33,503 nt of DNA from the NCBI GenBank assembly GCA_001786995.1, contig MFUO01000031.1, forward strand, positions 1 through 33,503, given 5' to 3'. Position numbers and translations under genes: made by a program. The DNA is from Candidatus Nomurabacteria bacterium RIFCSPLOWO2_01_FULL_33_17 (GTDB lineage Bacteria > Patescibacteriota > Minisyncoccia > Phycocordibacterales > UBA9973). The notes below the pieces were generated by a model that was given only the letters and a program-made list of their open reading frames with translations, had not been told where the DNA came from and did no database searches. Of this stretch, positions 2,542 through 30,655 are shown piece by piece (position 1 is the stretch's first letter; each line of letters opens with the position of its first letter).

Positions 2542-2868
2542 TTATATTTGAACACCAGTATTTTTTATTTCTTCAATCAAAGAACTGCCCCCTAAAAAGT
2601 CTTTTGATGAAAAACCAATTGGCTCAAGCCCTGAAATGACTTCAGCTTTATTCCTATTTTTTAATAAAAACTGAATTGCTTTAATTCTATCATTAAAAAA
2701 AGGAGAAACAATACAAACATCTATATCACTTTTTTCATTATTTTTCCCTGTTGCAGTTGAACCAAAAATAAATACCTTGTCAATAAAAATAGCCTCTTCT
2801 TTTGAAAGTCTTTGTGTATAACCTAAAACCATATTAATTATTTTTTTTGAGATTCTTTTTTTAGCCAT
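2542..2868 (-). CDS. Minimal nucleotidyltransferase (MNT), partner of the HEPN protein
   Basis: VFIFGSTATG...SDIDVCIVS Pol-beta motif; 108 aa; overlaps the HEPN gene. Confidence 0.88.
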   Translation of the reverse strand: MAKKRISKKIINMVLGYTQRLSKEEAIFIDKVFIFGSTATGKNNEKSDIDVCIVSPFFNDRIKAIQFLLKNRNKAEVISGLEPIGFSSKDFLGGSSLIEEIKNTGVQI

Positions 2869-3236
2869 AAAATTAATTCTTTTGTAAGATTTAGATATTT
2901 TTCAACAATATCTTTCTTATTAAACTTTTTATAAAATTCAAACTTTTCATCACCATATCTTCCAGCAATATTAAAAGAAGAAATTTCATTTAATATATTA
3001 AAATATTTTTTACTGATTTCAAATCCAGTCAAGATAGCAAGTTTTTCCAAATCATGACTGAATGGAGGATTTTCTTTTGTATGTTTTACAATTAAACCTT
3101 TTAGTAATTTTTCGAGACTCAGATGACAAAAGAAAAGAGCTTGGGGAAAATGTTTTAATTTGAAAAGCCCATTTGCAACTTCAAAGTCTTTTTTACTACT
3201 TTCCATCCAAAAATCAATAACTTTACTTTTTGTCAT
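2838..3236 (-). CDS. HEPN-domain protein (HEPN/MNT toxin-antitoxin-like pair)
   Basis: W...SKKDFEVA, FFCHLSLEKLLKG, PPFSHDL, AGRY. Start placed at the MTKSK ATG (3236) rather than the track's 3266. Confidence 0.88.
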   Translation of the reverse strand: MTKSKVIDFWMESSKKDFEVANGLFKLKHFPQALFFCHLSLEKLLKGLIVKHTKENPPFSHDLEKLAILTGFEISKKYFNILNEISSFNIAGRYGDEKFEFYKKFNKKDIVEKYLNLTKELILWLKKESQKK

Positions 3237-3270
3237 ATTTAATATAATAACACAAAATAAATACAAGTAC

Positions 3271-9278: not shown

Positions 9279-10205
9279 CTATTTTTTTGTATTTGTTATT
9301 ATTTCTGTAGCCTGCGCCAAAAGAGGAATAATGTTTTCGTATAAATTTAAACTTGGAATATTCGAAAGTGGAAACCATTGTGCCCCATCAAGCCCCCCAG
9401 ACTTTTCTAAATGTAAATCAGCAAATTCTGCATATCCGAGAAAATATACTACTTGTTTTTTAACTTTACCCTTTATTGGGTGTGATGCAATATATTCATT
9501 CCGTCCTAATTCTTGTTGGATTGTTATATCTATACCAAGTTCTTCTTTAATTTCGCGAATTGCACCCTGCTGTTCATCATCAATATCGTCTACCCCACCC
9601 TTTGATAATGTCCAAAAACCAAAAATATCATGCACAAGTGCAAAATAAACCATATCATTATAAATTGAATATACTACTGCTCCGGCCTTTTTCTCTATTG
9701 GTAATGTATCAGGGTCAACAACAATTGGTGTTTTGTTTCGCTCTTGTATTCTGTGTGCATTTTTACCATGATCCATTTTACCAGGCTCGCCCATTTCTTT
9801 ATAAACTGCACCCAAGACTCCATTAACAAATTTAGGTGACATATCAGACCCAAAAGATTTTGCAAGTTCAATTGATTCATTAATTGCAACTTTGGGTGGT
9901 ACATTGTCACGATCACCAAATAGTAATTCAGTTAAACCAATACGCAAAATATTACGATCAATAATTCCTATTTTTTCTATTGGCCATTCGGGAGCGGCTT
10001 TGACAATAACATCATCCAATATAGATCTTTTGGATAAAATAAGTTTTGATAAAGTCCGCGCAAAATCCGCATCCGGATGCCCAGGTGCAAATTCAACAAT
10101 ATTACGATTTACAATAGATGGAACTTCTTCAATTATAAGACCACGAAAATCCCACTCGAAAAGTGATTGTAGCACGATAGATCTTGATAAATGCCTGTTT
10201 GCCAT
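9279..10205 (-). CDS. nusB: NusB fused to a C-terminal NUDIX hydrolase domain
   Basis: N-half: RHLSR..VLQSLFEWD, IDRNILR, VAINESIELAKSFG, FVNGVLG. C-half: WTLSKGG...GAIREIKEELG Nudix box. Confidence 0.92.
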   Translation of the reverse strand: MANRHLSRSIVLQSLFEWDFRGLIIEEVPSIVNRNIVEFAPGHPDADFARTLSKLILSKRSILDDVIVKAAPEWPIEKIGIIDRNILRIGLTELLFGDRDNVPPKVAINESIELAKSFGSDMSPKFVNGVLGAVYKEMGEPGKMDHGKNAHRIQERNKTPIVVDPDTLPIEKKAGAVVYSIYNDMVYFALVHDIFGFWTLSKGGVDDIDDEQQGAIREIKEELGIDITIQQELGRNEYIASHPIKGKVKKQVVYFLGYAEFADLHLEKSGGLDGAQWFPLSNIPSLNLYENIIPLLAQATEIITNTKK

Positions 10206-16582: not shown

Positions 16583-19500
16583 CTAGTTATCCACAAAAAT
16601 CTTATTAGCTATTTTACAATATTCACATTCTGTATTAGAAGTTCCATATGGTTTAAAATGACAGGGTCTTGATACCCAACTACCTATTATTAATTCATTC
16701 TCATAGTCTTTTATATCACGAATTAGTAAATCTATAACTTCACTGTCTATATGAGTTTTGTATAAATAATTTTTCTCTTTTGGATTTTCTTCAAGAAAAA
16801 GTAATCTTGACTCAGCCACAATTTTTCCACCTTCTACTCCTTGTACAAGATAAGAATACATTGCAAGTTGTCGCATATATGAGGACAATCTATTTTCTTC
16901 ATCTTTTTTTTCTATCATACCAACAGTTTTACTACTTCCTGTTTTAAAGTCGGTAATTATAATGTCACCATTGGATAATCTTTCTGTTAAATCAATTTTT
17001 CCATAGATATTTAAATTTGGAAAATTTTTATCCCTAAAAGAGATATTCCTTTCAGATTCATGATCTTTAGCTAATTTTTCATAATAATTTATCAGCCAAT
17101 TTTTAATTGAATCATATGCATCTTTTGTTAACTTTTTTAATTCTATAATATCATCTATCCCCTCTTTTTTAAGTTCAAAAACTATTTTAACTTTAATAGC
17201 TTCATCACTTGGTTTTGAATTTTCTTTTAAAATAAACTCAATAACACTATGCACAGCCGAGCCCAAAACCAGACTTTTTGATTTAACCTCTGGCAATTTT
17301 AAAAAATTTCTAAAATACCAACGCCATGAACATATAAAAAAATTATTAAGCATCGAGACTGTTATGTTTGTCTCTGTGTATTTTTGTTTTACAAAATCCA
17401 TAACACTCTTTAAAGTATCATTTTCAATGTCTAAACTTGATTTTAATGCAAAATGTTTTATATCCTTTTTAATTATTTCATCTTCTGTTTGTATATTATT
17501 TTTTATAATAAAATGATCTTTATTTAAATCTTCAATTATATGAGCCAATGTTAAATCTTTACCTTCAAAATCTGATTTAGAATAAGAAATAGATAAAATA
17601 TCTTTTGCTCTTGTAATAGCAACATATAGTTCTCTTTTTGCACTCTCAATATCTTTTTTGTCTAAAAGATCTTTAACCTTCTCGGGTAATGTAAAAGCAT
17701 TTCTTTTACTACTCATTAAAATCTCTTCATTCATATGAGCTATAAATACATACTTATACTCAAGACCTTTTGATTTATGTAATGTCATTACATGAACACC
17801 ATTATTTAAACCAATAGATGCAATATTTATATGTGTATTATATTCTCTTAAGCGAGAAAAATACTGTAAAAAATCATTAAGTTTTGCTTTAGTATGCCCG
17901 TCTGCAGAAGCTATGCGACTAGCATTGCGGGTGGGGTTTTCTTCATATGAAATTGCAAGATGAATCAAACTTCGTACTATTTCTACATTTTTCAAAAGCT
18001 CTTCATGATTTTGACTTTTCTCTATTAAAAGTTCATTACCAACAATGCTAACAATCTTAGATATTCTTTCCCCATTTGTACTATTTATCCAGTTATTAAG
18101 CTGACCCCTCCAAATCGATACTGGATTCGTATCAGAAAATAAAGTCTTATCAGTATTTTCTGTAAAATCCCAAAAGTCTTTACGATTTAGAGTATAACCA
18201 TTTTGGCTAGAAAAACTTTTAATAAATTTATGCGCAAGAAATGTATCAATACCGCTCGTCTGATCTAAGATAGATTCACAAAGTAATACATTATCATTTG
18301 GATTATTTATTATTTGTAACACTCTTATTAGACTATCAACTTCATTTATATCAAAAATTGAAACATTTTTCTCAGAAACTATGGGTATACCCATATCCGA
18401 AAGTATATTACAAGCCTGCCTTACATTCTTATTCTTTGGAAGCAATATTGCAAATTGATTTAGATTTTCTCCCTTTTCAACCATTTCTTTAATCATTAAT
18501 CCGATATGTAAAATCTCATCGCGCGGAAAATTATATTGATATAAGTTTATCTTTACATTTTCTTTTTTATTACTTTTTAATTTTTCTTTTGTAATTGAAC
18601 TTATTAATAATTCATCCGCTAAACCTAAGATATTTTCAGTTGAGCGATAATTTTCAACCAAAATTATTAATTTTGCTTTACCAAAATAATGCGAAAATTC
18701 TTCAAAATAACTAATATTGGCCCCAGAAAATCCATATATAAGCTGACGGTCATCCCCAACTACAAATATATTTGGCATTTCAACATCTCCCCACACGGCT
18801 TTCAAAAAATTGTTTTGAACAAATGACGAATCTTGATGTTCATCTATAAGTATATATTGATATTCTTCTTTTATATCCGAGCGCGCATCGTCGGAATCTT
18901 CGACAATTTTTACAGCATATTCAAGCACATCGTCATAATCCATCATTCCTCTTTCTTTTTTCAAATTTTCATAAACTTCATAAAATTTTACCACTTCTAT
19001 TGTTCGTTCTAATGACTCTATTTTTTTAATAATATCTTTTTTAAATTCTCCTTTTGACTCTCCACGCGAAGAAATACTTTCTGGGTCTTTTTGCAAACTT
19101 TCAATATCTATCTTTATTAAATCCAAAAATTTTTCTGGCTCCAACCTTTCTTTTTTTAAAAGTGAAATCAAACCTTTTAAATCATTAAAATATTGAGACG
19201 GATTTGTGCGAGTCTTTATGTATTCCCAATCATTTGTATGCAATATCTCATCAATTAAAAATACAGATTCACTATCATCCATCAATTTTGGCGGATATGA
19301 AAAATCTAATACTTCATAATATTTACCCACTATACTAGAAGCAAAAGAATGGAATGTATTTATCGTTACACCGCGAGATAGAGATCCAATATATTTCTCT
19401 AATCGATCTTTCATTGCACCCACTCCAGAACGAGTAAAAGTAAGACAAAGTATACTATTTGCTCCAGTATCTGTATTTTGAAGTATATTTGCAATTCTTA

Positions 19501-19627
19501 ATGCTAAAATCTGAGTCTTGCCTGTACCAGGCCCCGCAACAACCATTACTGGCCCATCTATGGTGTCTACAGCCTCTTTTTGAGCAATATTTAACTTATT
19601 ATAAGCTTGTTTAAAATCTTCATCCAT
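16583..19627 (-). CDS. UvrD/PcrA-family SF1 helicase fused to a C-terminal PD-(D/E)XK nuclease
   Basis: AGPGTGKT, LTFT, TFHSF, ILIDEHQD, VGDDRQLIYGF, NYRS, MTLHKSKGLE, LYVAITRAK; C-terminal GKIDL..ITDFKTG..QLAMY with 1+3 Cys. Confidence 0.92.
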   Translation of the reverse strand: MDEDFKQAYNKLNIAQKEAVDTIDGPVMVVAGPGTGKTQILALRIANILQNTDTGANSILCLTFTRSGVGAMKDRLEKYIGSLSRGVTINTFHSFASSIVGKYYEVLDFSYPPKLMDDSESVFLIDEILHTNDWEYIKTRTNPSQYFNDLKGLISLLKKERLEPEKFLDLIKIDIESLQKDPESISSRGESKGEFKKDIIKKIESLERTIEVVKFYEVYENLKKERGMMDYDDVLEYAVKIVEDSDDARSDIKEEYQYILIDEHQDSSFVQNNFLKAVWGDVEMPNIFVVGDDRQLIYGFSGANISYFEEFSHYFGKAKLIILVENYRSTENILGLADELLISSITKEKLKSNKKENVKINLYQYNFPRDEILHIGLMIKEMVEKGENLNQFAILLPKNKNVRQACNILSDMGIPIVSEKNVSIFDINEVDSLIRVLQIINNPNDNVLLCESILDQTSGIDTFLAHKFIKSFSSQNGYTLNRKDFWDFTENTDKTLFSDTNPVSIWRGQLNNWINSTNGERISKIVSIVGNELLIEKSQNHEELLKNVEIVRSLIHLAISYEENPTRNASRIASADGHTKAKLNDFLQYFSRLREYNTHINIASIGLNNGVHVMTLHKSKGLEYKYVFIAHMNEEILMSSKRNAFTLPEKVKDLLDKKDIESAKRELYVAITRAKDILSISYSKSDFEGKDLTLAHIIEDLNKDHFIIKNNIQTEDEIIKKDIKHFALKSSLDIENDTLKSVMDFVKQKYTETNITVSMLNNFFICSWRWYFRNFLKLPEVKSKSLVLGSAVHSVIEFILKENSKPSDEAIKVKIVFELKKEGIDDIIELKKLTKDAYDSIKNWLINYYEKLAKDHESERNISFRDKNFPNLNIYGKIDLTERLSNGDIIITDFKTGSSKTVGMIEKKDEENRLSSYMRQLAMYSYLVQGVEGGKIVAESRLLFLEENPKEKNYLYKTHIDSEVIDLLIRDIKDYENELIIGSWVSRPCHFKPYGTSNTECEYCKIANKIFVDN
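16587..16595 (+). promoter_or_regulatory. Perfect DnaA box, isolated
   Basis: TTATCCACA overlapping the last codons of the helicase; function unproven. Confidence 0.35.
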
Positions 19628-19634
19628 TTCTCTA

Positions 19635-20258
19635 TTATAGCAGAAATAAATGTATTAAAATAAACACTCCAGAAAATGTAATAATAACCCCAGAAATATG
19701 ATTTATAAGCTTGATGTGAAATTTATTAAAACTAGACCGGATTTTTGAGACAAAAAAAGCAAGTATTGTCCACATAGTTAAAGCACTTAATAAAAGTCCA
19801 AAAACAAAAGATACTGGAAATTCAGAAAAACCATTAAACACTGATAACGACCCCAAAATAGCTGTAAATGTAATTATTTGAAATGGATTAAGCATAGTAA
19901 CAATAAATGCTGAAAAAAATTGACCAAAATAATTTTCTACTTCTAAATCATTTCTTTTATGTTTTGTATATAATTTTTCTGAGAAAAAAGTTGCTATACC
20001 TAAGATAATTAATGAAGTCCCACCTATAATATGTATTGGTATGGTATAGTTTATAAAAAATTCGGATGAAGAATTAAGACTAAAGATTATAATAATACTA
20101 TAAATAAAATCAGATGTGATTACCCCAACTCCAGTAATAAAACCAGACATAAATCCATCATTAATTGTTCTTTTAATACTTAAAAAACCAACAGGACCAG
20201 TTGGTAAAGATATTAACATTCCCATAAACAGACCTTTTAAAAATGAAATCAAAAACAT
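19635..20258 (-). CDS. LysE/RhtB family transporter
   Basis: ISLPTGPVG, G...G.GVITSD, TMLNP; about six TM helices. Confidence 0.88.
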   Translation of the reverse strand: MFLISFLKGLFMGMLISLPTGPVGFLSIKRTINDGFMSGFITGVGVITSDFIYSIIIIFSLNSSSEFFINYTIPIHIIGGTSLIILGIATFFSEKLYTKHKRNDLEVENYFGQFFSAFIVTMLNPFQIITFTAILGSLSVFNGFSEFPVSFVFGLLLSALTMWTILAFFVSKIRSSFNKFHIKLINHISGVIITFSGVFILIHLFLL

Positions 20259-20447
20259 AAACAGAGTATAACATAGTAAAAAAATATTTCACCTATTAAT
20301 ATCTTTCCTATATAATTTTTATGTGTTAAAAATAAAGAAATAATAAATAAATCTTGTTATATAAAGAAATATATACTATACTAACTTACGAAGTGCTCAT
20401 TCGAAGCACTGTTATTTTGTTTTTAATTAAATAACAGTTTTCAAAAG

Positions 20448-20479
20448 GCAAATCCCGTCTCGCAAGAGACGGGATTTGC
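20448..20479. other. Perfect 14-bp hairpin with a GCAA tetraloop (terminator or part of a small RNA)
   Basis: GCAAATCCCGTCTC-GCAA-GAGACGGGATTTGC. Confidence 0.7.
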
Positions 20480-20535
20480 TGTATACGCTTAAAAATGTTA
20501 GAAATAAAGGAGTTTATAATAATATTTATAAATTT

Positions 20536-20620
20536 GGAGGTGTCGGATAGCGGTTTATTCCACTACCTTGGAAAGGTAGCATATCGAAAGGTATCGAGAG
20601 TTCGAATCTCTCCACCTCCG
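20536..20620 (+). tRNA. tRNA-Ser (GGA), CCA not encoded
   Basis: Acceptor stem GGAGGTG/CACCTCC with discriminator G; anticodon arm CTACC-TTGGAAA-GGTAG; long variable arm; T arm GAGAG-TTCGAAT-CTCTC. Confidence 0.95.
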
Positions 20621-20773
20621 CGAGGAACTTCGTGACGAGCAGAGGTGAGAAAGACATCTACATGTCTTTCATGGGAGATTCGAAAAGTTTTTCGATGTGT
20701 ATGAGAAATTTTATTTCGAATACACCGAAAAGGTGTACTGCTCCTGTAAGGAGAGAATCCCCCCACCTCCTCC
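20621..20773 (+). other. Structured tRNA trailer ending in a duplicated tRNA 3' end (att-like)
   Basis: GAATCCCCCCACCTCC (20755-20770) versus tRNA GAATCTCTCCACCTCC (20604-20619), 14/16 identical; internal antisense pieces and hairpins. Confidence 0.7.
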
Positions 20774-20880
20774 AAAATTCGTTTACAAATAAAACTAGAA
20801 TCCTAGTTTTCAACGGAAAATAAGTACAAAACTCGTAAATTTTAAATAATATAAAGAAAAGTATTATTCCATAAAAATAT

Positions 20881-21762
20881 TTACGATTTTTTATTAGTAC
20901 TTAAAAATGAAATTTCATTTTTAAGTACTTTAACCAAATAAGGATCTGTAAGCTCCTCAATTGAAATGATATCTAAAGAACCTGTTACTTTTTTGGAATC
21001 ATCTAGTTTTTTATATAACTCCCAACATAATTTGGGAAGTTCTCCTTCTTTATACTCTATTAATTTGTTTTTTATATAACTCGCAATTTTTTTTAAATCT
21101 CTGAATATTTGTGTTGGTTGTCCATGAGTAACAATAACTAATTCCGTATTTTTCCCTAATTTATTAACTTTTTCACTAGTTTTAATTACCAGAGAGTACA
21201 ATCTTAATAAAACATCTCTATATGATTCACCATATTTTGTAAAAAATTGATTCAAATCAGGATACTTGTATTGACCATTTGCAAGTAATACAGGATCACC
21301 ATATCTATAATCATAATTATCATTTTTTTCTCCATAATCTGAAGCGTGGGTTTCCTTAAGAAAAATTTTATCTGCAATATACAAACCTTCATATTGTTCG
21401 CCTTTAACATAATCTGTTGGTAAAACAAATTTACCCTGATCAATTTCTCTCAGGTCATTTTCTTGAACTGATAAACATCTTAAAGTCGAATCTTTTTTTA
21501 GAAGTGCATCAATTACCATTTGTGTACTTTGTTTTGCTCTAATTCTAGGAGATGTGACAAATAAAACAGCTTTTTTATTGTACTCTTTTAGTTCTTTGTA
21601 TAACTGACCTGCAATCTCCTCAGCCCTATCTTCCTGTCCGTGAATTAAAACACCATCCCTTCCATATTTCTCAAGATCGTCAACTTCATCTAAATGTCTT
21701 ATGACACTAACCTTTTTCTCTTTTCCTAAATTATTAAAATTTTCAATATGTTCCATAACCAC
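20881..21762 (-). CDS. Histidine phosphatase family protein (start may be ATG 21756)
   Basis: VIRH, TSPRIRAKQS, LREIDQG, GES, IVTHG. Confidence 0.85.
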   Translation of the reverse strand: MVMEHIENFNNLGKEKKVSVIRHLDEVDDLEKYGRDGVLIHGQEDRAEEIAGQLYKELKEYNKKAVLFVTSPRIRAKQSTQMVIDALLKKDSTLRCLSVQENDLREIDQGKFVLPTDYVKGEQYEGLYIADKIFLKETHASDYGEKNDNYDYRYGDPVLLANGQYKYPDLNQFFTKYGESYRDVLLRLYSLVIKTSEKVNKLGKNTELVIVTHGQPTQIFRDLKKIASYIKNKLIEYKEGELPKLCWELYKKLDDSKKVTGSLDIISIEELTDPYLVKVLKNEISFLSTNKKS

Positions 21763-21889
21763 GATATTATAAAGAAAAAATCATGTTTTTGCAATTAAAA
21801 TTAATGGAAAATATAATTTAATTCCAGTTTGGCATTGTGTAAAACATTAGTGATATATTATAAATATATGTTATAATATAATCATAAAA

Positions 21890-22831
21890 ATGAATAATCA
21901 ATTTAAAAAAAATTCTATAATCACCAGAAGCTACAATGATATTGTATTTGAGGCTGACAAGGTTATTAAGGGAGTTACACGGGATAGATATTTAAAGGAA
22001 ATAAAATGGTTTTTAGAAGCAGAAAAAATAATACCAAACAATACTCCATTAATTTTTACTTCAATTAAAAAACCAATTATCCGTAAAAACAATAAAAACC
22101 TTATATATTACGAAATGCAAGCAATTGATGGTAATAATTTATATCAATGGTCAATGGATAATAGAGATGAAGCAGAAAAAATTTTCGATCAGGTAATATC
22201 TTTAATTATGTTAATGCACCAAGAATCTAAAATGGCAAATGATGATGATATTATAATGATGTATTACTCAAAACCTAAAAAGGCAATTGAAAATTTTATT
22301 AAGGAAAAAATGCTTGACCCAGATGCATTAAGAATAAATGGGTTTCTCGTTCAGAATCCTGTTGTAACACTTGACAAAGTCTTTAAAGAATTTCGTGAGA
22401 GATTATTTAACACAAAATATTCTTTTATTCACGGAGACTTAACCATGAGCAACATTGTGATAGATCAAAACAGAAAAGTATATCTAATTGATCCGCGAGG
22501 CGCTTTTGGAAAGACAAAGATGTATGGTGATGTGCGGTATGATGTTGCAAAGTTGTTTTATAGTATAGTTGGAAATTTTGATTCTTTAAATAGTGGTCAA
22601 TTTAAGTATGAATATAATCTTGAAACAAATGATCATATTTTCTCAATTGTTGATAATGGATTTAGTTCTTATTCTGACAAGATACTTAGTTTATTTAAAG
22701 AAGATTTAGAGATTATTAAATTTATCCATACTACTATTTGGTTGAGTTTAATACCACATACATCAAATGACAAAAAACAACAGCTTTGCACTTTTTGTAA
22801 CGGGGTTTTATTATTAGATTTATTTAAATAA
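21890..22831 (+). CDS. APH/choline-kinase-like small-molecule kinase
   Basis: YYEM, FIHGDLTMSNI, LIDPRG, YGDVRYDVAKL. Confidence 0.85.
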   Translation: MNNQFKKNSIITRSYNDIVFEADKVIKGVTRDRYLKEIKWFLEAEKIIPNNTPLIFTSIKKPIIRKNNKNLIYYEMQAIDGNNLYQWSMDNRDEAEKIFDQVISLIMLMHQESKMANDDDIIMMYYSKPKKAIENFIKEKMLDPDALRINGFLVQNPVVTLDKVFKEFRERLFNTKYSFIHGDLTMSNIVIDQNRKVYLIDPRGAFGKTKMYGDVRYDVAKLFYSIVGNFDSLNSGQFKYEYNLETNDHIFSIVDNGFSSYSDKILSLFKEDLEIIKFIHTTIWLSLIPHTSNDKKQQLCTFCNGVLLLDLFK

Positions 22832-22833
22832 TT

Positions 22834-23544
22834 ATGCAAATACACACAAAAAAAACGAAATTATTTCTAGACTCAGTAATATATGATGAGATAAAGAAAT
22901 ACTCATGGATTATTTCCGGGGTAACTACCACTCCAACTTTTTTTAATCGCGATAAGGTTAATTTTGATGAATTTGCTACACAACTTAGATCTGATTATCC
23001 TGATTTAGAGTTACACGTCGAAGCCTTAGGTAATAATTCAATGGAGACAGAAAAAGAATTAAAGACCATTTTAAACAAACCTTGGTTTAGCATAAACAAA
23101 GTAGTTATAAAAATACCCGTTAGCTTTGATAATCTAAAAATTGTTTCAAAATACTCAAAAAATGGTGTTAAATTCAACACGCATTTAGTCTTTACTCCTT
23201 GTCAGGCATATTTGGCTGTACTTGCTGGATCTACTTATGTCTGTCCCCTTATTGGAAGATATGCAGACAATGTGTCTAAATTCTTTGGTAGAAATCTTCA
23301 TGGTGGTGAGGATGATATTACCAATAAAGTACTAGTTGATATACTTAATGTCGTTGATAACGGGCAGGACAAACGGGTTGGTGTTATGGCTTCATCAATA
23401 AGGACTGTTGGTGACTTTTGTAATGCAGTTATGGCTGGCTCTGATATAGTAACAGTCCCAACAAATGTCCTTGAGGACTCTATTAAAAATGAATACACAG
23501 ATCAAGGAATTTTAACTTTATTAGAAAGTGTAAATGTAAAATAG
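22834..23544 (+). CDS. Transaldolase / fructose-6-phosphate aldolase (TalC/FSA) family protein, variant
   Basis: LFLDS, GVTTTPT, VVIKIP (Schiff-base Lys), LVF..QA.LA, YVCPLIGR, ASSIR, VTVP. Confidence 0.88.
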   Translation: MQIHTKKTKLFLDSVIYDEIKKYSWIISGVTTTPTFFNRDKVNFDEFATQLRSDYPDLELHVEALGNNSMETEKELKTILNKPWFSINKVVIKIPVSFDNLKIVSKYSKNGVKFNTHLVFTPCQAYLAVLAGSTYVCPLIGRYADNVSKFFGRNLHGGEDDITNKVLVDILNVVDNGQDKRVGVMASSIRTVGDFCNAVMAGSDIVTVPTNVLEDSIKNEYTDQGILTLLESVNVK

Positions 23545-23545
23545 T

Positions 23546-24391
23546 ATGGACAAAATAGTTCTAAGTAATAATATGTCTATCATTGAGGAAGTAATAAAAA
23601 TATTGTCCAATGAGACTCGAGTGTTAAATCCGAAAGAGATTTTGTGGTTAGTGTTTGGAAGTTATGTAATAAATACAAATACAACAGAAAGTGATATAGA
23701 CATCATCGGAATACATAAAAGTTTTATAAATAAAAAGAGATATGTTTTTAATCATAAAAATATACCAATTCATTTTAATGCGATTAATATGGATGATCTT
23801 AAAGATGATGGAGAAAGTAGGTTGTATGGGGGGTATTTTACAGGTAAGATTATAAATCCTCATATTTTTTTATATGGTAATAGTAAGGAAATTAATGATT
23901 CTATTTATAATGCAGGGAAATTTATCGGCCCACTGGCTGGTTATATAAGTAAAATTTCTACAGACACTTCATTTTCACAATCACAAATAACAGCTTTTGT
24001 GTTTATTGCTTATCTTAGTACTGATCCAAGTTTTGATTCATATTTTTTAAATTATTTTATCTCACAAGAATTTGAAAAAATATGGGAATGTTTGCAAAAA
24101 AATACAGTCAAGATGCTTATTATCTCTGGAAGTATTCAGCGTGTTGATAATAAATATATTTTTACAGATAGTTTTTTTAGTTACAAGGATTTTCACTTTG
24201 AAAGAATGAAGATTTCAGCAAGACACTGGAGTTACGGTGTTATTTGTCATGACAATGATATAAAATTTCCAGATACAATGTTCACTAAGGCAAATATTAA
24301 ATTAAAAATTATTGATCCAGAGGGTAAAAAATATGCAAACATGGTGTATTTTCTTAAAGAACAGTCAGGCTTAAGTGAAATTTTTATTTAA
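23546..24391 (+). CDS. Pol-beta-like nucleotidyltransferase domain protein with an unrecognised C-terminal region
   Basis: LVFGSYV...TESDIDII. Confidence 0.7.
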   Translation: MDKIVLSNNMSIIEEVIKILSNETRVLNPKEILWLVFGSYVINTNTTESDIDIIGIHKSFINKKRYVFNHKNIPIHFNAINMDDLKDDGESRLYGGYFTGKIINPHIFLYGNSKEINDSIYNAGKFIGPLAGYISKISTDTSFSQSQITAFVFIAYLSTDPSFDSYFLNYFISQEFEKIWECLQKNTVKMLIISGSIQRVDNKYIFTDSFFSYKDFHFERMKISARHWSYGVICHDNDIKFPDTMFTKANIKLKIIDPEGKKYANMVYFLKEQSGLSEIFI

Positions 24392-24395
24392 TACA

Positions 24396-24869
24396 ATGCA
24401 AATAAATAAACTATATAGACAAGGAGTAAATGCTATTATTGTTGATAAAGATAGCAATTTTCTCTTAGTACAAAAGAATACATGGCAGGATAATATCTTA
24501 ACTATTCCTGGCGGCGGAAAAGAGAATGATGAAACACCAGAAGAGAATTTATTTAGAGAGTTAGCGGAAGAAATCGGGGCAGAAAAAAAAGATTTAATTA
24601 TTTTAGGTATAAGTTCTCACAACATAGAATATGATTATTCCATAGAGTTATCATCAAAAATCAACGGAGGGGAATACAGGGGTCAGTCATACAAACAATT
24701 TGTTGTAAGATTTATCGGAGATAAAGATAAATTAATATTTACTCCTAAAGAGTTTAGAAATCACAAGTGGGTAAAAGCTCAAGAATTGCATAAATATCTT
24801 GTTCTACCTAATCAATATAAAACTCACAAACAGGCAATCAATGAAATATTGCCGGGCATAATACAATGA
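24396..24869 (+). CDS. NUDIX hydrolase (RppH-like)
   Basis: YRQGVNAII, PGGGKENDETPEENLFRELAEEIG, YRGQ, EFRNHKWV; the ORF track extends to GTG 24375. Confidence 0.88.
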   Translation: MQINKLYRQGVNAIIVDKDSNFLLVQKNTWQDNILTIPGGGKENDETPEENLFRELAEEIGAEKKDLIILGISSHNIEYDYSIELSSKINGGEYRGQSYKQFVVRFIGDKDKLIFTPKEFRNHKWVKAQELHKYLVLPNQYKTHKQAINEILPGIIQ

Positions 24870-25759
24870 AATTAATTACAATTGGAATTCCAACAAAAGA
24901 AGGGATACATTACAAAGAACTTCTTTGTTCGTTGTGTAAATCAATACTATTTTTGTCTGATGAAAGATGGAAATTTGAAATTATTTTTTGCATCAATGGT
25001 CTTCGTACAGACGAAACTCAGTATAAAATTAAATTAATTATTAACGAATTTCCAGAACTCAATATAAGAATCATCGTGCAAGAACCAAATTGTTTAGGAA
25101 AACCACTTGCAATGAAAAGAATTTCTGATGAATCTAGTGGGGAATTCCTTCTGTTTCTTGATGATGATATAGTAATTTGTCATAACACTATTAAAGATTC
25201 CATAAATGTTTTTGAAATTCATCCTAATATAAAATTAGTCAGTGCTACCCCTAAAATTGTATACCCAACCCCAATTTCATTCTGTAGGAGAATAATTTTT
25301 GATATATTAAATGTTCAACACATTTTCGATTTATTTATTTTTCCAGATCCATTTATTATTGGGCGTTTTATGATGTTAAGAAAAATAGATATGCCAATTA
25401 TTCCTGCAGATATTATAAAAGATGATATGTATTTACAGATATTATTTTATCCCAATGTATTTAAAATTAAATCACACATTAAATACCAAGGTGTAATTTA
25501 TTTAAAGGATTATTATACAAGGCTATTTCGTTTAATCGAAGGTGAAAAACAAGATTTAAAAAATATTAATAAAGATAAACTAAGACAATATTTTGATGAC
25601 CCACTCATGAAAAGAAGACTAGATTTTAATAAAATTATTCATTTGAGGTTGTATTTTTTATTTTGTTTTATTTGTTATAGATTGATTAAGTTATTTGCTT
25701 TTTTACTACAACCACTGTTTTTCAACAAGAAACAAATAGGTTGGAAGCGTACAAATTAA
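24866..25759 (+). CDS. Glycosyltransferase family 2
   Basis: ITIGIPT, EIIFCING..D.T, GKPLAM, FLLFLDDD, KDD. Confidence 0.85.
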   Translation: MKLITIGIPTKEGIHYKELLCSLCKSILFLSDERWKFEIIFCINGLRTDETQYKIKLIINEFPELNIRIIVQEPNCLGKPLAMKRISDESSGEFLLFLDDDIVICHNTIKDSINVFEIHPNIKLVSATPKIVYPTPISFCRRIIFDILNVQHIFDLFIFPDPFIIGRFMMLRKIDMPIIPADIIKDDMYLQILFYPNVFKIKSHIKYQGVIYLKDYYTRLFRLIEGEKQDLKNINKDKLRQYFDDPLMKRRLDFNKIIHLRLYFLFCFICYRLIKLFAFLLQPLFFNKKQIGWKRTN

Positions 25760-25779
25760 TATATCCAAAATCTATGAAT

Positions 25780-26604
25780 CTAAAAACGAGGATTGATTTT
25801 TTTGAATTCTTTTAACCACATTCTTATAGATTCCAACTCAATTTTTCTGTCAGGATTTTTTTCAATAGTCTGGATTTCTTTTTTTGTAATATTCCAAGGT
25901 TTTAAATAACTAGCATAATGAATTATGTAAATGGGCTTTTTTCTTGATTTTAAAGAATAGCCAAAAAGTTTATTATATTCATCTAAATAGTAATGAATCA
26001 TATTATATTTATGATCTAAGTGTAGCTTTTTATTTTGTTTCCATTTTGAGTAATATGAATTCAAAAAATCTTGATCACTGCCAGATTTTGGTGTAAACAG
26101 TGTTCCACCAGATTCTAGTGTTTCTATTTTACCAATTTTGTTAATCATATCTTTGAATGTTTTTGATGAAGGTTTTATAACCATCAAGCCACTATTAAAA
26201 TGTGTCCATGATTTTTTTCTTTGCAACATACCTCCCGCATTTGTAGCAGACATGTGATCATATTTAAAGAGATCATCTATGTTCCGAAGTATTAACATAT
26301 CTGCATCAAAATATACGATTTTAGAATATTTTGTTTGATTAAATATATTTAATTTTGAGTATGTTTTGAACCATCTATGTTTTGTGCTAACATCTGTTGG
26401 GTTATCTATATCTTTAAATAGTACTTCATATGAAATACGAAGTTTTTTTAAAATAAGTTTAGTTCTCTTTGAAATATTTGGTGTAAGTAATACTAAAAAT
26501 GGATATTTACTTTTTGTTTTTTTATATGAAAAAAATAAAACGAGTAAGCCTTTGAGATAGTTATCTGTTGAGAGTACTGAAATATATGAATAATTATTTT
26601 GCAT
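25780..26604 (-). CDS. Glycosyltransferase family 8 (glycogenin / galactinol-synthase-like)
   Basis: YSKLNIF..KYSKIVYFDADMLILRNIDDLF, FNSGLMVIKPS, DQDFLN, IHY..KPW. Confidence 0.9.
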   Translation of the reverse strand: MQNNYSYISVLSTDNYLKGLLVLFFSYKKTKSKYPFLVLLTPNISKRTKLILKKLRISYEVLFKDIDNPTDVSTKHRWFKTYSKLNIFNQTKYSKIVYFDADMLILRNIDDLFKYDHMSATNAGGMLQRKKSWTHFNSGLMVIKPSSKTFKDMINKIGKIETLESGGTLFTPKSGSDQDFLNSYYSKWKQNKKLHLDHKYNMIHYYLDEYNKLFGYSLKSRKKPIYIIHYASYLKPWNITKKEIQTIEKNPDRKIELESIRMWLKEFKKINPRF

Positions 26605-26663
26605 AGTTATATTATATAATTTTTTAATGAAATTAGCTGAATTTAATTTTGTTCTTTATATTA

Positions 26664-27557
26664 TTATTGTTTTAAAAACTTACTGATTCTTTTTCGAAAG
26701 AAAATTACCAAAAGTATAATTACAAGTAAAAGTAAAATAAAAAAATAATTATTTGTTTTTACAACATCTTGTACAACATTTATAGGTCTTAGGACTTCTA
26801 TTCTGGTATTACCAACTTTATCAATTGCTTTGATATATATAGATTGGTTAATATCTTGATTTTTTAATAAATATGGACTTTCAGTATTTTTATATGTACC
26901 CAATTCCCCTTCGCGTACTTCATAATGATCTATCCCCGAAATTTTATCTTGTGTTGTAAAAATCAAAACATTTTGACCATTATAAATATCGGGATTTTTT
27001 GTAATTTTTGGATTAAAACTTTCCGGCAATTCTTTGTCATCTATTACATCATCAAAAGAGAAAAAGTTAAAAATTTCATTATTAATTTTAGTATTTATTA
27101 ATATAGATATTGGAATAGTTGTATTAACAACAGCACTACCTAAACCATCATTTTTAAGAACTCTGACACCACTAGCATTTATTTCTTTTAAACCTGCAGT
27201 TTTAGAGAAAAGTGTTATTTTAAATAAAAAATTATTATTACTATTAAAACCCCCAGGGGTTAATCCTGCAAAATGAATAGTATTTTGATTTGTTACACTT
27301 GGATTTTCAATCCAAAAATTTATAACTGAACCTCCAGAATTAATAGATTTAACATTTAAACCATTCAACAATATTATGTCCCCTTCTATCGCATTTATGT
27401 TTTCATTTTGTGTGTCAAGTCTTACTTCAACTACAAATTCTTCGTTTCGTGAAAATTGATTATTATTAGCATAGAAAAACAAATTACTAGCATTTGCAAA
27501 ATATGGCATTATGCTAAAAAATGTAAAGAAAATGGTTATTTTTAAAAATTTTTTCAT
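26664..27557 (-). CDS. Secreted cohesin-like domain protein with a C-terminal TM anchor
   Basis: Signal peptide; F.VEV.LDT..ENINAIEG.I beta pattern; DKISGIDHYEV; IKAIDKVGN; C-terminal TM followed by a basic tail. Confidence 0.7.
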   Translation of the reverse strand: MKKFLKITIFFTFFSIMPYFANASNLFFYANNNQFSRNEEFVVEVRLDTQNENINAIEGDIILLNGLNVKSINSGGSVINFWIENPSVTNQNTIHFAGLTPGGFNSNNNFLFKITLFSKTAGLKEINASGVRVLKNDGLGSAVVNTTIPISILINTKINNEIFNFFSFDDVIDDKELPESFNPKITKNPDIYNGQNVLIFTTQDKISGIDHYEVREGELGTYKNTESPYLLKNQDINQSIYIKAIDKVGNTRIEVLRPINVVQDVVKTNNYFFILLLLVIILLVIFFRKRISKFLKQ

Positions 27558-27569
27558 AAAAAATATAAA

Positions 27570-28325
27570 TTAACCTGTCCAGTAATAACCCATTATACTA
27601 AAATCAACTAAGTCTACTTTATTGTCATTATTTAATTCTACATATGCTGGCGGTGCATATTTTTTATACCAAATACGCATAATAGAAAAATCCAAAAAGT
27701 TAACCCGCCTGTCGTGATTTATGTCAGGTCTTAAATATGAAAAACCATACGAATCTAATATAAAAGAATCTTTATTTATAACTATATTATCGATAGTGGT
27801 ATTGGAACTATTTGTTAAATGCACAGGAAAACTTAATAAACTTGACCGCATTTTTTGCTTGTTCTCACCATATACTGAAAAAGTATATGGTCCTGTTGAA
27901 ATACCATTGATTTGTGTATTAAAATTCCCATTCTCGTCTGCGACAATTGTAGATATTAATTGCCCATCTTTTAAGATATAAACTTTACCAAGTGGTATAG
28001 TATTTCCTGAAAAAATTACACCAGTTGTTGTAGGCAGTATTACCCCACCACCGGATGATGTTGGGGCTGGTGTTGAAGATGCTATACAACTACTAGTATT
28101 AAATGCACATAAAGATGTACAAGTAAGAGTTCCAGATGCAAAACCCTGCGACACACATGATGCCCCACCAAGATCGGCCCCGTCACATGATTCGCCAACA
28201 CCAATAGTATCATCGCCACAACCCAAAACAGTTGCAGAAATATCTACATTTTCAGTTACAGCTAAAACAAAATTAGTAGTTCCAAAAATTAATATTATTA
28301 AGATGATTATAATTTTTATTCTCAT
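27570..28325 (-). CDS. Secreted protein: Cys-rich motif + Ig/carboxypeptidase-regulatory-like domain + dockerin-like double EF-hand
   Basis: CGDDTIGVGESCDG; DINHDRRVNFLDFS and ELNNDNKVDLVDFS. Confidence 0.75.
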   Translation of the reverse strand: MRIKIIIILIILIFGTTNFVLAVTENVDISATVLGCGDDTIGVGESCDGADLGGASCVSQGFASGTLTCTSLCAFNTSSCIASSTPAPTSSGGGVILPTTTGVIFSGNTIPLGKVYILKDGQLISTIVADENGNFNTQINGISTGPYTFSVYGENKQKMRSSLLSFPVHLTNSSNTTIDNIVINKDSFILDSYGFSYLRPDINHDRRVNFLDFSIMRIWYKKYAPPAYVELNNDNKVDLVDFSIMGYYWTG

Positions 28326-28354
28326 TTAAAATAACCATATCAAATAACTAAGGT

Positions 28355-29515
28355 TTATATTCTTCGTCTTACAGGCTTTTTAACAGCTTCTGTATTATTT
28401 TGATTTTGTGTTTCAGTTTGAATTTGAGAATTGTTTTGAGAGTTTAAACTATTTTGCATTTCATTTGTATTTTGTTCGACAGCTATTTTACCATAATCAC
28501 CATGCATTATTTTAGAAATCAACCAGTGTTTATAGCGACGGAAAATAAATCGCACAATTATAAAAACTAAAAATAAATCAATAATTATAAATATCAACAA
28601 ATGCCATGGTAATACCCAAAATACGAAAGAGCTAAGAGCTGTCTCTTTTTGTGTACCATAAGTCAGTAACATTTTTGCTTTATAGCGACCAAATGCAAAA
28701 TTACGCCACTCGTATTTGGCTTTAGTTAGAAAATTTTTGTTATCAAGATCTGTCGGACCAGCGGTACCACCGCGACCTTGCCAATTTGCTTCAATTTTAC
28801 GAATACTGTTTGGCAAAATGTTACCCTCTACTGGGTTCGCAGAGATTTTTTCAGCAGTCATACCAAAAATGTTTTTCATTGCAATATCCCCTTCAGGCTT
28901 TATTCTGTCACCACCCGAGTTTTGGAAGCGATAATAAAATGATACAGGCAGGTGGGTAAAAAATGTTTGCTTGTCTTTGGTTGCAAATTCTAATATCCCC
29001 CCATTTTCATCAACATCACCATTTACACGCAATAGTACCAGCATGCCCACCTTGGCACCAATAGCCAAACTACCCGAATCAGTAGTAGGTGGTTGTGTGC
29101 CCCAAAAGACTACAGCAAAATGACCACCCGGGTCAGCATTTGCAGGAATTTTAATTTTAACTTGTACAATTTTAGACGAATTGGCGGGTAAATCAATAGA
29201 TTCTACTGTTTCCATCCATGTGCCCAAACCCTCGGTAGCATTTACAAATGATGGGCTACCTGTTTCGCCTGAAGCTTCAAAATTGGCGTACGATGCATAA
29301 TATTTTTCATCAGTATCGCGTTCGTTTATCAAAGTCATTTCTTGACTTAAAACTTGCCCTGGGTCACCGGCTATTTCCATACGAATTGGGGTCAAAGTCA
29401 AAGCCTGTGCATTGTAAAATGGCAAAAACAAAAAAATAAAAGCAGAAATAAAGATGGAAACAAAAAATACCCCACCTAGTTCAAATTTTTTTATGTTAAG
29501 TATTTTACTTGTCAT
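28355..29515 (-). CDS. DUF916-like (WxL-interacting-type) membrane-anchored surface protein
   Basis: LTLTPIRMEI..DPG, IPANADPGGHFAVVF, FQNSG...KPEG, FGRYKA.M, TM helix LPWHLLIFII. Confidence 0.65.
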   Translation of the reverse strand: MTSKILNIKKFELGGVFFVSIFISAFIFLFLPFYNAQALTLTPIRMEIAGDPGQVLSQEMTLINERDTDEKYYASYANFEASGETGSPSFVNATEGLGTWMETVESIDLPANSSKIVQVKIKIPANADPGGHFAVVFWGTQPPTTDSGSLAIGAKVGMLVLLRVNGDVDENGGILEFATKDKQTFFTHLPVSFYYRFQNSGGDRIKPEGDIAMKNIFGMTAEKISANPVEGNILPNSIRKIEANWQGRGGTAGPTDLDNKNFLTKAKYEWRNFAFGRYKAKMLLTYGTQKETALSSFVFWVLPWHLLIFIIIDLFLVFIIVRFIFRRYKHWLISKIMHGDYGKIAVEQNTNEMQNSLNSQNNSQIQTETQNQNNTEAVKKPVRRRI

Positions 29516-29521
29516 AGTTTT

Positions 29522-30655
29522 TTAAAAGTTACCAGTTGCAATATATGTTAGAGTTGTTGTATACGCACCTGCTTCTGTTGTTGCGGTAATATTTGCAAGA
29601 TAAGATACTGAAACTGTTTCAGTAGCAGTTGGTCCTGCTTGCGTAACTAATGTAGTTGCCGCACCTGCAACAAATTTCCAAGAAGCAGTTGAATCACGCT
29701 CATACCCAGATTCAATAGTTGCTGTACCATCAGTAGATGCAGAGATTCCAAATTGTTCAGTATTACCAACATCACCATCAGAATCATTTACGGTACCACC
29801 CATAGCAGAAATAGTATCTGATCCAGATGTTAATGTTGCACCATTATAAGAAATAGTATACCCACCCGTACCATTAGTTGCTGTAGCTAATGTATGTGCA
29901 GCTGTAGGAGTTGTTGCAGATGCATCACCCCCAGTTGTACCAGTAGCCCAACGACCAGTTGAAGTTGAAAGAGCTCCAAAACCAATAGTTACATCACTAA
30001 TTGCAAAAGAAATGGTTGGAGTAACAGTTGCGGTAATTACAACTTGCTCATCAGCAATAATTGGTACAGTGACTGAACCTGAATCTGATGTAGTTGTAAT
30101 TGTAATATTTGGTGTTGATGCTGTTGGATTTTGCATGTGAGCTGCGGCAATAGTGACAATAACTTTATGACCTGCAGCAATTGTATTTGTGAATGAAGTT
30201 GACGGAGCAGTAAAAGTAACAGTTGTTGTACCAGAAATTACAGCTCCCCAAACCGTTGCAGTACTAGGAGATGCTGCTATAGTTTCACTAGTGGAAGTAC
30301 AAGCAGTACCACCAGTCACAACCGCAGTACCATTCTCAAGACCAGTAGTTGCTCCATGACAAATTTGTAAATCAGTAATTACAAGACCTGTTGTTGTAAA
30401 TCCACTTGGAAATGTTATTGCAATCGTACCACCAACACCAATCGCTGATGTAGAAGTAAAAGCAATTTTATGTACAGAAAGTTGACTTGCTGCTTGACGG
30501 GACATTGTGTCAGATATTGCAGTTAGACCAGCCGCAGTTGCCGTATTTGGCAAAATAAATGATGTAGCAAAGACCAAAGCCAGCATCATAAAAATGCTAA
30601 GGGATTTTTTGCCAAAGAGCTTTAATTTTTTAGGTTTTAAAAATTTGCGAATCAT
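29522..30655 (-). CDS. Secreted Thr/Ala/Ser-rich surface protein with a WxL-like C-terminal domain
   Basis: Signal peptide; V.ITATVTPTISF; TNGTGGY; ends SYLANITATTEAGAYTTTLTYIATGNF. Confidence 0.7.
   Translation of the reverse strand: MIRKFLKPKKLKLFGKKSLSIFMMLALVFATSFILPNTATAAGLTAISDTMSRQAASQLSVHKIAFTSTSAIGVGGTIAITFPSGFTTTGLVITDLQICHGATTGLENGTAVVTGGTACTSTSETIAASPSTATVWGAVISGTTTVTFTAPSTSFTNTIAAGHKVIVTIAAAHMQNPTASTPNITITTTSDSGSVTVPIIADEQVVITATVTPTISFAISDVTIGFGALSTSTGRWATGTTGGDASATTPTAAHTLATATNGTGGYTISYNGATLTSGSDTISAMGGTVNDSDGDVGNTEQFGISASTDGTATIESGYERDSTASWKFVAGAATTLVTQAGPTATETVSVSYLANITATTEAGAYTTTLTYIATGNF

Follow-up and report, generated by a model that had tools for sequence, protein, structure and literature searches.

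A kinase-nucleotidyltransferase-NUDIX gene cassette in Patescibacteria and its possible role in a variant route to sugar nucleotides

What pathway could be encoded by seven genes of sugar and nucleotide chemistry packed beside a tRNA-Ser gene in a Candidatus Nomurabacteria genome? The genes lie on contig MFUO01000031.1 (C31) of Candidatus Nomurabacteria bacterium RIFCSPLOWO2_01_FULL_33_17 (557,613 bases assembled, 82% complete), the 33,503 nucleotides of which are referred to here as the window. A preliminary description made from the sequence alone had treated them as one island matching no known pathway. Comparison of related loci showed that the conserved unit is smaller, namely, a kinase, an optional transaldolase, a nucleotidyltransferase (NT), and a NUDIX hydrolase. 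We see an even chance that this core is a mobile cassette for a variant nucleoside diphosphate (NDP)-furanose pathway, in which an NT with the predicted fold of Tam41 would activate a sugar phosphate for exchangeable glycosyltransferases (GTs). What is new is the enzyme proposed to activate the sugar, together with its close linkage to NUDIX; the pathway logic is already known.

A core of four genes in related loci

The core genes of the window are the following.

21890-22831, plus strand: kinase, APH (Pfam), 313 amino acids (aa), core gene 1
22834-23544, plus strand: transaldolase, TAL_FSA (PF00923, E 6e-22), 236 aa, core gene 2, optional
23546-24391, plus strand: NT, NTP_transf_2 (Pfam), 281 aa, core gene 3
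24396-24869, plus strand: NUDIX hydrolase (PF00293, E 5e-14), 157 aa, core gene 4

We compared 26 NT loci, merged to 20 distinct ones, about half of which are too short to display flanks; the closest relatives are not among them. The kinase was found upstream of the NT in 12 of the 14 loci with a readable upstream side, with the transaldolase between the two in 6 of these 12, and NUDIX followed the NT directly in 15 of the 16 loci with a readable downstream side. In one protein (P0049), NT and NUDIX are fused. The exceptions to the core order were a 5'-truncated remnant and locus L001, the genome of which has no kinase by profile search. The L001 record is titled as a gammaproteobacterium, and its cassette genes are 56 to 60% identical to those of the window, pointing either to cross-phylum transfer or to a mislabelled bin. 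Weak matches to the NT profile (15 at the class level and 5 elsewhere) were short, N-terminal, and due to other Pol-beta proteins; they were left out of the counts and reused as a control. Within 1.5 kb of 24 other Pol-beta loci from the same phylum there were no kinases, no transaldolases, and a single NUDIX gene. Pairwise identities of kinase and NT also covaried across eight loci (Spearman 0.86, from 28 nonindependent pairs).

The remaining three genes of the block, a family 2 GT (GT2), a family 8 GT (GT8), and a histidine phosphatase (HisP), were found in none of the 20 loci. The condition under which the preliminary description would have been refuted, that the genes never occur together elsewhere, fails for the core. 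The seven are not one conserved unit, however, since these three are peculiar to this locus and the aldolase is optional. Other genes accompany the core elsewhere: GNAT together with GT4 in seven loci, a DegT aminotransferase in seven, NDK-like genes in nine (two supported by Pfam and seven assigned by eye), and another GT2 and a GHMP kinase in one each. Overall, GTs stand beside the core in 8 of the 20 loci (GT4 in seven and GT2 in one, many loci being short), and histidine phosphatases that are not orthologues of the window HisP lie near it in four.

The NT family has 51 close homologues and forms 109 clusters at 50% identity, and its distribution is patchy, as full-length profile matches turned up in 1 of 400 other genomes from the phylum, in none of 400 from the class, and in 2 of 134 from a different class. 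No plasmid match was found, nor any relative in viral contigs, and viral structures gave weak matches. In the literature searched (subscription papers were outside its scope), we found neither a description of the NT family nor a paper uniting Patescibacteria with this gene combination.

The kinase connects the cassette to a phage pathway

By its sequence, the kinase corresponds to the C-terminal domain of AfhE/RB69 gp52:53-type phage proteins, here encoded as a protein of its own. It shares 34% identity over 138 aa with RB69 gp52 (E 1e-16; profile probability of 99.2), and structure comparison gave an APH fold. The domain, homologous to that of AfhE and RB69 gp52, has the HGD..SN and IDPRG motifs. 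Residues K27, E37, H181-G-D183, N188, and D201-P-R-G are invariant or nearly so among 36 homologues. No sequence relative was found in the PDB, and the APH(3') NCBIfam model scored 23 bits against a cutoff of 205. The kinase matched 360 phage and 6 plasmid records; in the four inspected, it forms the C-terminal part of 506- to 554-aa proteins with an N-terminal extension, and a small gene comes next. AfhE is reported to convert arabinose-5-phosphate into arabinose-1,5-bisphosphate, after which AfhF takes off the phosphate at position 5 and UDP-arabinose is made by the N-terminal domain of AfhE (PMC13326640). Since this kinase links the cassette to the AfhE/AfhF route, the absence of any matching pathway had been overstated. 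The chemical logic of building, phosphorylating, activating, and transferring a sugar is better supported than the preliminary description could know, because the kinase family is reported to start NDP-arabinofuranose synthesis.

The cassette departs from the phage UDP-D-arabinofuranose route (AfhE/AfhF of HY126, RB69 gp52:53/gp51/gp55, and DLP3 gp81-83, as described in PMC13326640) in several ways. Both have a homologous kinase domain, a sugar-phosphate-rearranging enzyme upstream, and GTs downstream. In the cassette, however, the kinase is stand-alone, with neither a GT-A pyrophosphorylase domain nor a linked HAD phosphatase, a transaldolase takes the place of the arabinose-5-phosphate isomerase, and NT and NUDIX are present instead, with no thymidylate-synthase-like base-modifying gene. 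The 313-aa kinase has no N-terminal extension, and PF00483 is absent among the seven genes. An HAD phosphatase of the AfhF/gp51 type was not found in the window, and the genome has one unlinked homologue (C16:2152-2601), a stand-alone AfhF/BcbF-like HAD (profile E 4e-14) with a called start that overlaps a tRNA-Val gene.

Among 79 viral kinase loci, 58 have a long N-terminal extension and 52 a recognizable pyrophosphorylase domain, and none has the NT. Conversely, no AfhF-like HAD was detected in the 26 NT loci, nor was a pyrophosphorylase domain with a home-made, insensitive profile, which recovered two of nine viral NTP_transferase-DHBP fusions; PF00483 was absent from 32 neighbor proteins scanned with Pfam. 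The two solutions therefore look mutually exclusive. In eight related viral contigs, NTP_transferase, a stand-alone kinase, an HAD, and a canonical transaldolase stand in a row, with a GT4-like gene next in the one scanned, so that the pairing of a transaldolase with this kinase family has arisen on at least one further occasion. At L093:4553-9058 and in seven to eight related viral contigs, the NTP_transferase is fused to a DHBP synthase and the row continues through kinase, HAD, and transaldolase to the GT4-like gene.

In a quick tree, 17 stand-alone kinases fell on one side of a branch with SH-aLRT support of 97, the Patescibacteria label being assumed for most of them. Because long branches meet nearby, we claim neither an origin nor an order of events. 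One size-based search returned no fused kinases, a weak blank contradicted by those found in other searches. A predicted complex of kinase and NT scored 0.00, which is no evidence either way.

Fused relatives of the kinase also occur in bacterial clusters. In Pasteurella multocida type B, BcbE and BcbG are reported to be required for the addition of fructose side chains to the capsule (PMC13552107). A 514-aa "capsular biosynthesis protein" of Citrobacter, in which NTP_transferase is joined to this kinase beside a small HAD, was matched at E 4e-16. We presume that this protein belongs to the BcbE family and that BcbE has the same architecture, the comparison having been with the Citrobacter protein and not with BcbE itself. 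Unlike the BcbE/BcbF/BcbG capsule genes, the locus studied here has no capsule export or polymerase genes, and its activating enzyme is different. Within the same phylum, a classical NTP_transferase-kinase fusion lies beside an SIS-HAD fusion in a GT cluster (L157:6551-9690, genome G393). On a Planktothrix plasmid (L068:48-16894), a fused kinase is found beside glycine amidinotransferase, sulfotransferase, dioxygenase, and desaturase-like genes, in what looks like a secondary-metabolite cluster.

The NT resembles Tam41 in its predicted fold

The NT is a Pol-beta-fold enzyme and not one of the GT-A pyrophosphorylases that normally make NDP-sugars. In three structure comparisons of its predicted model (pLDDT of 90.8), a bacterial Tam41 came first and fission-yeast Tam41 close behind, these being the only near-whole-length matches. 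The best (7ecd) had a Foldseek E of 1.7e-5, a Z of 12.4, and a root mean square deviation (rmsd) of 4.1 over 212 aligned residues; it spans residues 6 to 238 of the model, that is, the nucleotidyltransferase and winged-helix domains, with a moderate score. ANT(4') (Z of 10.9 to 11.0, 116 to 119 residues) and Hailong HalB (Z of 9.6, 89 residues) matched the N-domain only. In the Tam41 reaction, phosphatidic acid receives CMP on its phosphate (PMC7018664). An NDP-sugar pyrophosphorylase carries out a step of the same kind.

Among 61 sequences, G38-S39, D50, D52, D88, K101, and P105 are conserved, D50 and D52 in 60 each. The third catalytic carboxylate is missing, since position 76 is T, S, H, or N and thus nonacidic in all 61; the equivalent strand in kanamycin nucleotidyltransferase bears a glutamate. 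A nonacidic residue here would suit a nucleophile that is a phosphate and not a hydroxyl group. Of the three acids of the fold, Tam41 is reported to retain one (PMC11646218). With Tam41/Mmp37 (7ecd and 6ig2) and Caulobacter CpgC, the NT would have in common a predicted two-domain fold over 191 to 212 residues and, as proposed here, transfer of a nucleoside monophosphate (NMP) onto a phosphate; it differs from Tam41/Mmp37 in its 10 to 12% identity and in a soluble sugar context instead of a lipid one. The Tam41 Pfam family (PF09139) had no candidate in the NT's own genome and was not among the 25 of 33 families displayed for the 61 members, and no Tam41 chain was among 32 PDB sequence matches at E values of ≤5. 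Because it has no profile match and retains the DxD motif, the NT is not a member of the Tam41 family. A 303-aa open reading frame (ORF) in another genome of the phylum (L158:3-914, G096:C36) matched the Tam41 Pfam model weakly (E 1e-4, below the cutoff) and was not matched by the NT profile; it may be a true distant Tam41.

One distant member of the NT family (P0154, E 6e-4 to the NT profile) is fused to a PfkB sugar kinase, and kinase-nucleotidyltransferase fusion is the architecture of HldE. The ADP- and GDP-heptose routes share the logic of kinase, phosphatase, and nucleotidyltransferase with this locus, but GmhA/SIS, GmhB, HddA, and an HIGH-class transferase are absent among the seven genes. 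Further distant members carry the annotation "hypothetical protein" in Micromonospora, Salinispora, Verrucosispora, and Streptomyces.

The transaldolase has an altered active site

Compared with the transaldolase of T. acidophilum, the window enzyme retains D13, E63, K93, N115, R142, S188, and R190. Of these, K93, which we take to be the Schiff-base lysine, E63, presumably the catalytic glutamate, and R142, S188, and R190, presumably phosphate binding, are invariant in seven of seven homologues. In all seven, the window residues T33, H117, C137, and L139 also stand where the T. acidophilum enzyme has N, T, S, and F, so that the TalC motifs TTNP, N-x-T, and S-P-F are replaced by TTTP, N-x-H, and C-P-L. 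These four changes suggest a nonstandard substrate, and the protein scores below the NCBIfam cutoff for TIGR00875 (94 bits versus 246). It is the sole transaldolase of the genome, which also encodes a transketolase. Being optional in the cassette, it cannot be the sole source of the kinase substrate.

A proposed pathway and its alternatives

Taking the folds from predicted models, we propose reactions, a type of sugar, and an acceptor from the observed gene content, linkage, homology, and catalytic motifs. (i) A ketose phosphate would be supplied by central metabolism, or by the altered transaldolase in loci that have one. (ii) By analogy with the homologous AfhE domain, the kinase would phosphorylate the anomeric carbon. 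(iii) The distal phosphate would be removed either by HisP, a candidate in this locus, or by the unlinked AfhF-like HAD. (iv) The NT would move an NMP from a nucleoside triphosphate onto the phosphate of the sugar, filling the slot of the missing GT-A pyrophosphorylase. (v) GT2 and perhaps GT8 would transfer the sugar here, and GT4, along with an aminotransferase and an acetyltransferase, would do so in other loci; the likeliest acceptor is a glycoconjugate of the cell surface. (vi) NUDIX would dispose of by-products, for instance dinucleoside polyphosphates or misphosphorylated NDP-sugars. We favor such a variant of the AfhE type because it is the most economical reading of the data.

Several observations weigh against this pathway. 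The Tam41 match is moderate (TM score of 0.49 in addition to the rmsd given above), ANT(4') comes close to it on the N-domain alone, sequence profiles do not detect Tam41 in the NT, and the NT family, unlike Tam41, keeps both DxD aspartates. The failure to detect a pyrophosphorylase in NT loci counts for little, since the home-made profile is insensitive, and an unlinked NTP_transferase of the genome on C16 (GlmU-like by eye) might perform the activation step. The NT is tied more closely to NUDIX than to the kinase, as shown by the ratios and the fusion described above, and genome G946, of unstated completeness, has the NT-NUDIX pair with no kinase found in the genome. The AfhE/AfhF route includes no dedicated NUDIX, and no phosphatase is conserved in the core. 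A Wzx-type flippase was not found in the 82%-complete genome, and the DegT aminotransferase of 7 of the 20 loci comes with no visible dehydratase or oxidase.

The same close tie between NT and NUDIX suggests the main alternative, which we regard as improbable: the two might make and break a nucleotide-based signal or toxin, such as a dinucleoside polyphosphate or nucleotidylated metabolite, in a stress response or defense, with kinase and transaldolase modifying or supplying the substrate and the GTs as passengers. The NUDIX is of the RppH/Ap4A-hydrolase type (best NCBIfam match RppH, E 2e-18, 66 bits versus a cutoff of 116) with an intact Nudix box, HalB is a structural neighbor of the NT, the distribution is patchy, and the kinase-less pair of G946 lies beside restriction-modification-like genes (by eye). 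However, PADLOC 2.0 (2023 library) gave three short generic matches among 11 proteins, and no effector, sensor, or membrane toxin recurs across the 20 loci, where GT4, DegT, GNAT, and NDK-like genes do; the kinase, moreover, belongs to a sugar-activation family. Were this alternative true, the cassette would hold a new nucleotide make-and-break pair.

A second alternative, to which we attach a low probability, coincides with the favored pathway in steps i to iv and departs from it chiefly in what is made, a small aminosugar or glycoside that would be built, as in lincosamide sugar synthesis, or detoxified by an antibiotic-modifying trio of APH, ANT, and GNAT. GNAT with GT4 and DegT, each in seven related loci, would agree with this, as would the distant NTs of Micromonospora, Salinispora, and Streptomyces and the close structural neighbors ANT(4') and APH. 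Lincosamide clusters are reported to contain a transaldolase, a phosphatase, a nucleotidyltransferase, a transaminase-type enzyme, and an S-glycosyltransferase (PMC12945683); the octose pathway (LmbR, LmbK, LmbO, LmbS, and LmbT) thus groups the first three with an aminotransferase and a GT-B transferase, as in the seven related loci. The likeness is an analogy of functions, and an isomerase, an epimerase, and a dehydrogenase are missing here. Furthermore, the window block has no aminotransferase, GNAT, or exporter, the APH and ANT matches are at 9 to 16% identity (ANT on the N-domain only), and the sequence relatives of the kinase are sugar-activation fusions.

It is less probable still that the block is a mosaic in which the core landed at a tRNA hotspot among unrelated passengers, GT2, GT8, and HisP having no connection with it. 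These three are missing from the 20 related loci, GT8 and HisP are on the opposite strand, and an 83%-identical relative has a different upstream gene, but GT2 overlaps NUDIX by 4 nucleotides (nt), the corresponding positions of other loci are taken by different GTs and phosphatases, and the three are no less foreign to 60 relatives than the core itself. Finally, we consider it very unlikely that the NT acts on lipids in the manner of Tam41 or Caulobacter CpgC, forming a CDP-lipid or a lipid head group, as, in spite of its best fold match and of the ceramide kinase CpgB reported alongside CpgC, the chemistry of which is unsolved (PMC12275187), its partner kinase is a soluble APH-fold protein, none of the recurring genes of the loci is a lipid or CDP-alcohol transferase gene, and the NT itself has neither a hydrophobic stretch (maximum of 0.88) nor a Tam41 profile match.

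Returning to the NDP-furanose pathway, we tentatively put forward, at somewhat less than even likelihood, that the NT founds a new enzyme class of soluble Tam41-fold NDP-sugar pyrophosphorylases. These would replace the GT-A domain of AfhE-type fusions and work with an anomeric kinase, a His/Cys/Leu transaldolase, and a dedicated NUDIX to yield an unusual NDP-ketofuranose, not only in Patescibacteria but also, with different partners, in Micromonospora, Salinispora, and Streptomyces. If so, sugar nucleotides would be made by a structurally new kind of enzyme, and the Tam41 fold, which until now has been associated with a lipid substrate, would gain a soluble sugar role that might inform the chemistry of the bacterial CpgC. 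The cassette would also give access to the question of how Patescibacteria, a group with a poorly known surface chemistry, may decorate their cells, and the NT family is annotated as hypothetical in cultured, genetically tractable actinomycetes.

The locus and its surroundings

The other features of the locus are as follows.

20536-20621, plus strand: tRNA-Ser(GGA) (ARAGORN), left landmark of the variable region
20881-21762, minus strand: HisP, His_Phos_1 (PF00300, E 1e-5), 293 aa
24866-25759, plus strand: GT2 (PF00535, E 2e-6), 297 aa, locus specific
25780-26604, minus strand: GT8 (PF01501, E 5e-16), 274 aa, convergent, locus specific

The seven ORFs have the positions, strands, and spacings (2, 1, and 4 nt, then a 4-nt overlap) beside tRNA-Ser that had been described, and all seven family labels score above the Pfam cutoff. 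An alternative GTG start of NUDIX at 24375 would give a 17-nt overlap with the NT. HisP carries R22-H23, SPRIRA at 71, and H213-G214. GT2, translationally coupled to NUDIX by the 4-nt overlap, has DDD at residues 99 to 101 and one hydrophobic stretch near residue 262 (hydropathy of 1.99), and it resembles unnamed GT2 clusters. GT8 is glycogenin-like (glycogenin-1, E 4e-23; Skp1 galactosyltransferase, E 7e-21).

The block had also been called very AT-rich, which is correct relative to the genome (27.8% GC versus 32.6%, a value as low in 0.4% of 711 equal-length windows) but does not mark an island. The flanks are equally low (UvrD at 28.6%, LysE at 25.8%, and the next gene on the right at 24.9%), and GC content at third codon positions is ordinary (0.17 to 0.25 for the seven genes and 0.207 ± 0.055 for the genome), so that composition does not delimit an island and AT-richness as a sign of transfer was ruled out. 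The variable region is set apart by gene content instead. Block DNA gave matches of at most 48 nt against 40 relatives, GT2, GT8, and HisP were each absent from 60, and genome G406 of the same genus has UvrD, LysE, and tRNA-Ser followed by other genes in place of the block. There was no integrase among the window ORFs seen and, beyond the adjacent repeat, no second copy of the tRNA-Ser end on the contig, which ends 7 kb further on.

As far as can be checked, the block is not an assembly artifact. At least half of its words are contained in 8 of 19 listed sequencing runs, 4 of which are flagged as possible sources, and contig pieces free of errors were obtained from one more run for five of the seven genes. 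Four runs with small shares yielded short pieces, and no piece spans the block. No RNA run among those listed contained the block. A promoter scan was at chance level (37 found versus 42 expected), and the repeats in 19500-28500 resemble what AT-rich DNA would give by chance and were rejected as a signal.

Right after tRNA-Ser, a repeat of 60 to 95 nt (window 20672-20764), also covered by contigs of other organisms, is followed by a degenerate copy of a tRNA 3' end. It has five more copies in the genome at 87 to 92% identity, four just after tRNAs (C29, C36, and two on C6) and the fifth on C19. Elsewhere in the window there are an MNT-HEPN-like pair (2542-3266, by eye), the first gene of which weakly matches the N terminus of the NT profile, and a NusB-like protein with a C-terminal NUDIX-like extension (9279-10205, by eye). 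Directly beyond GT8 (26664-30655) lie four codirectional, secreted-looking genes, one with weak dockerin and Ig matches, the products of which are possible candidates for surface acceptors.

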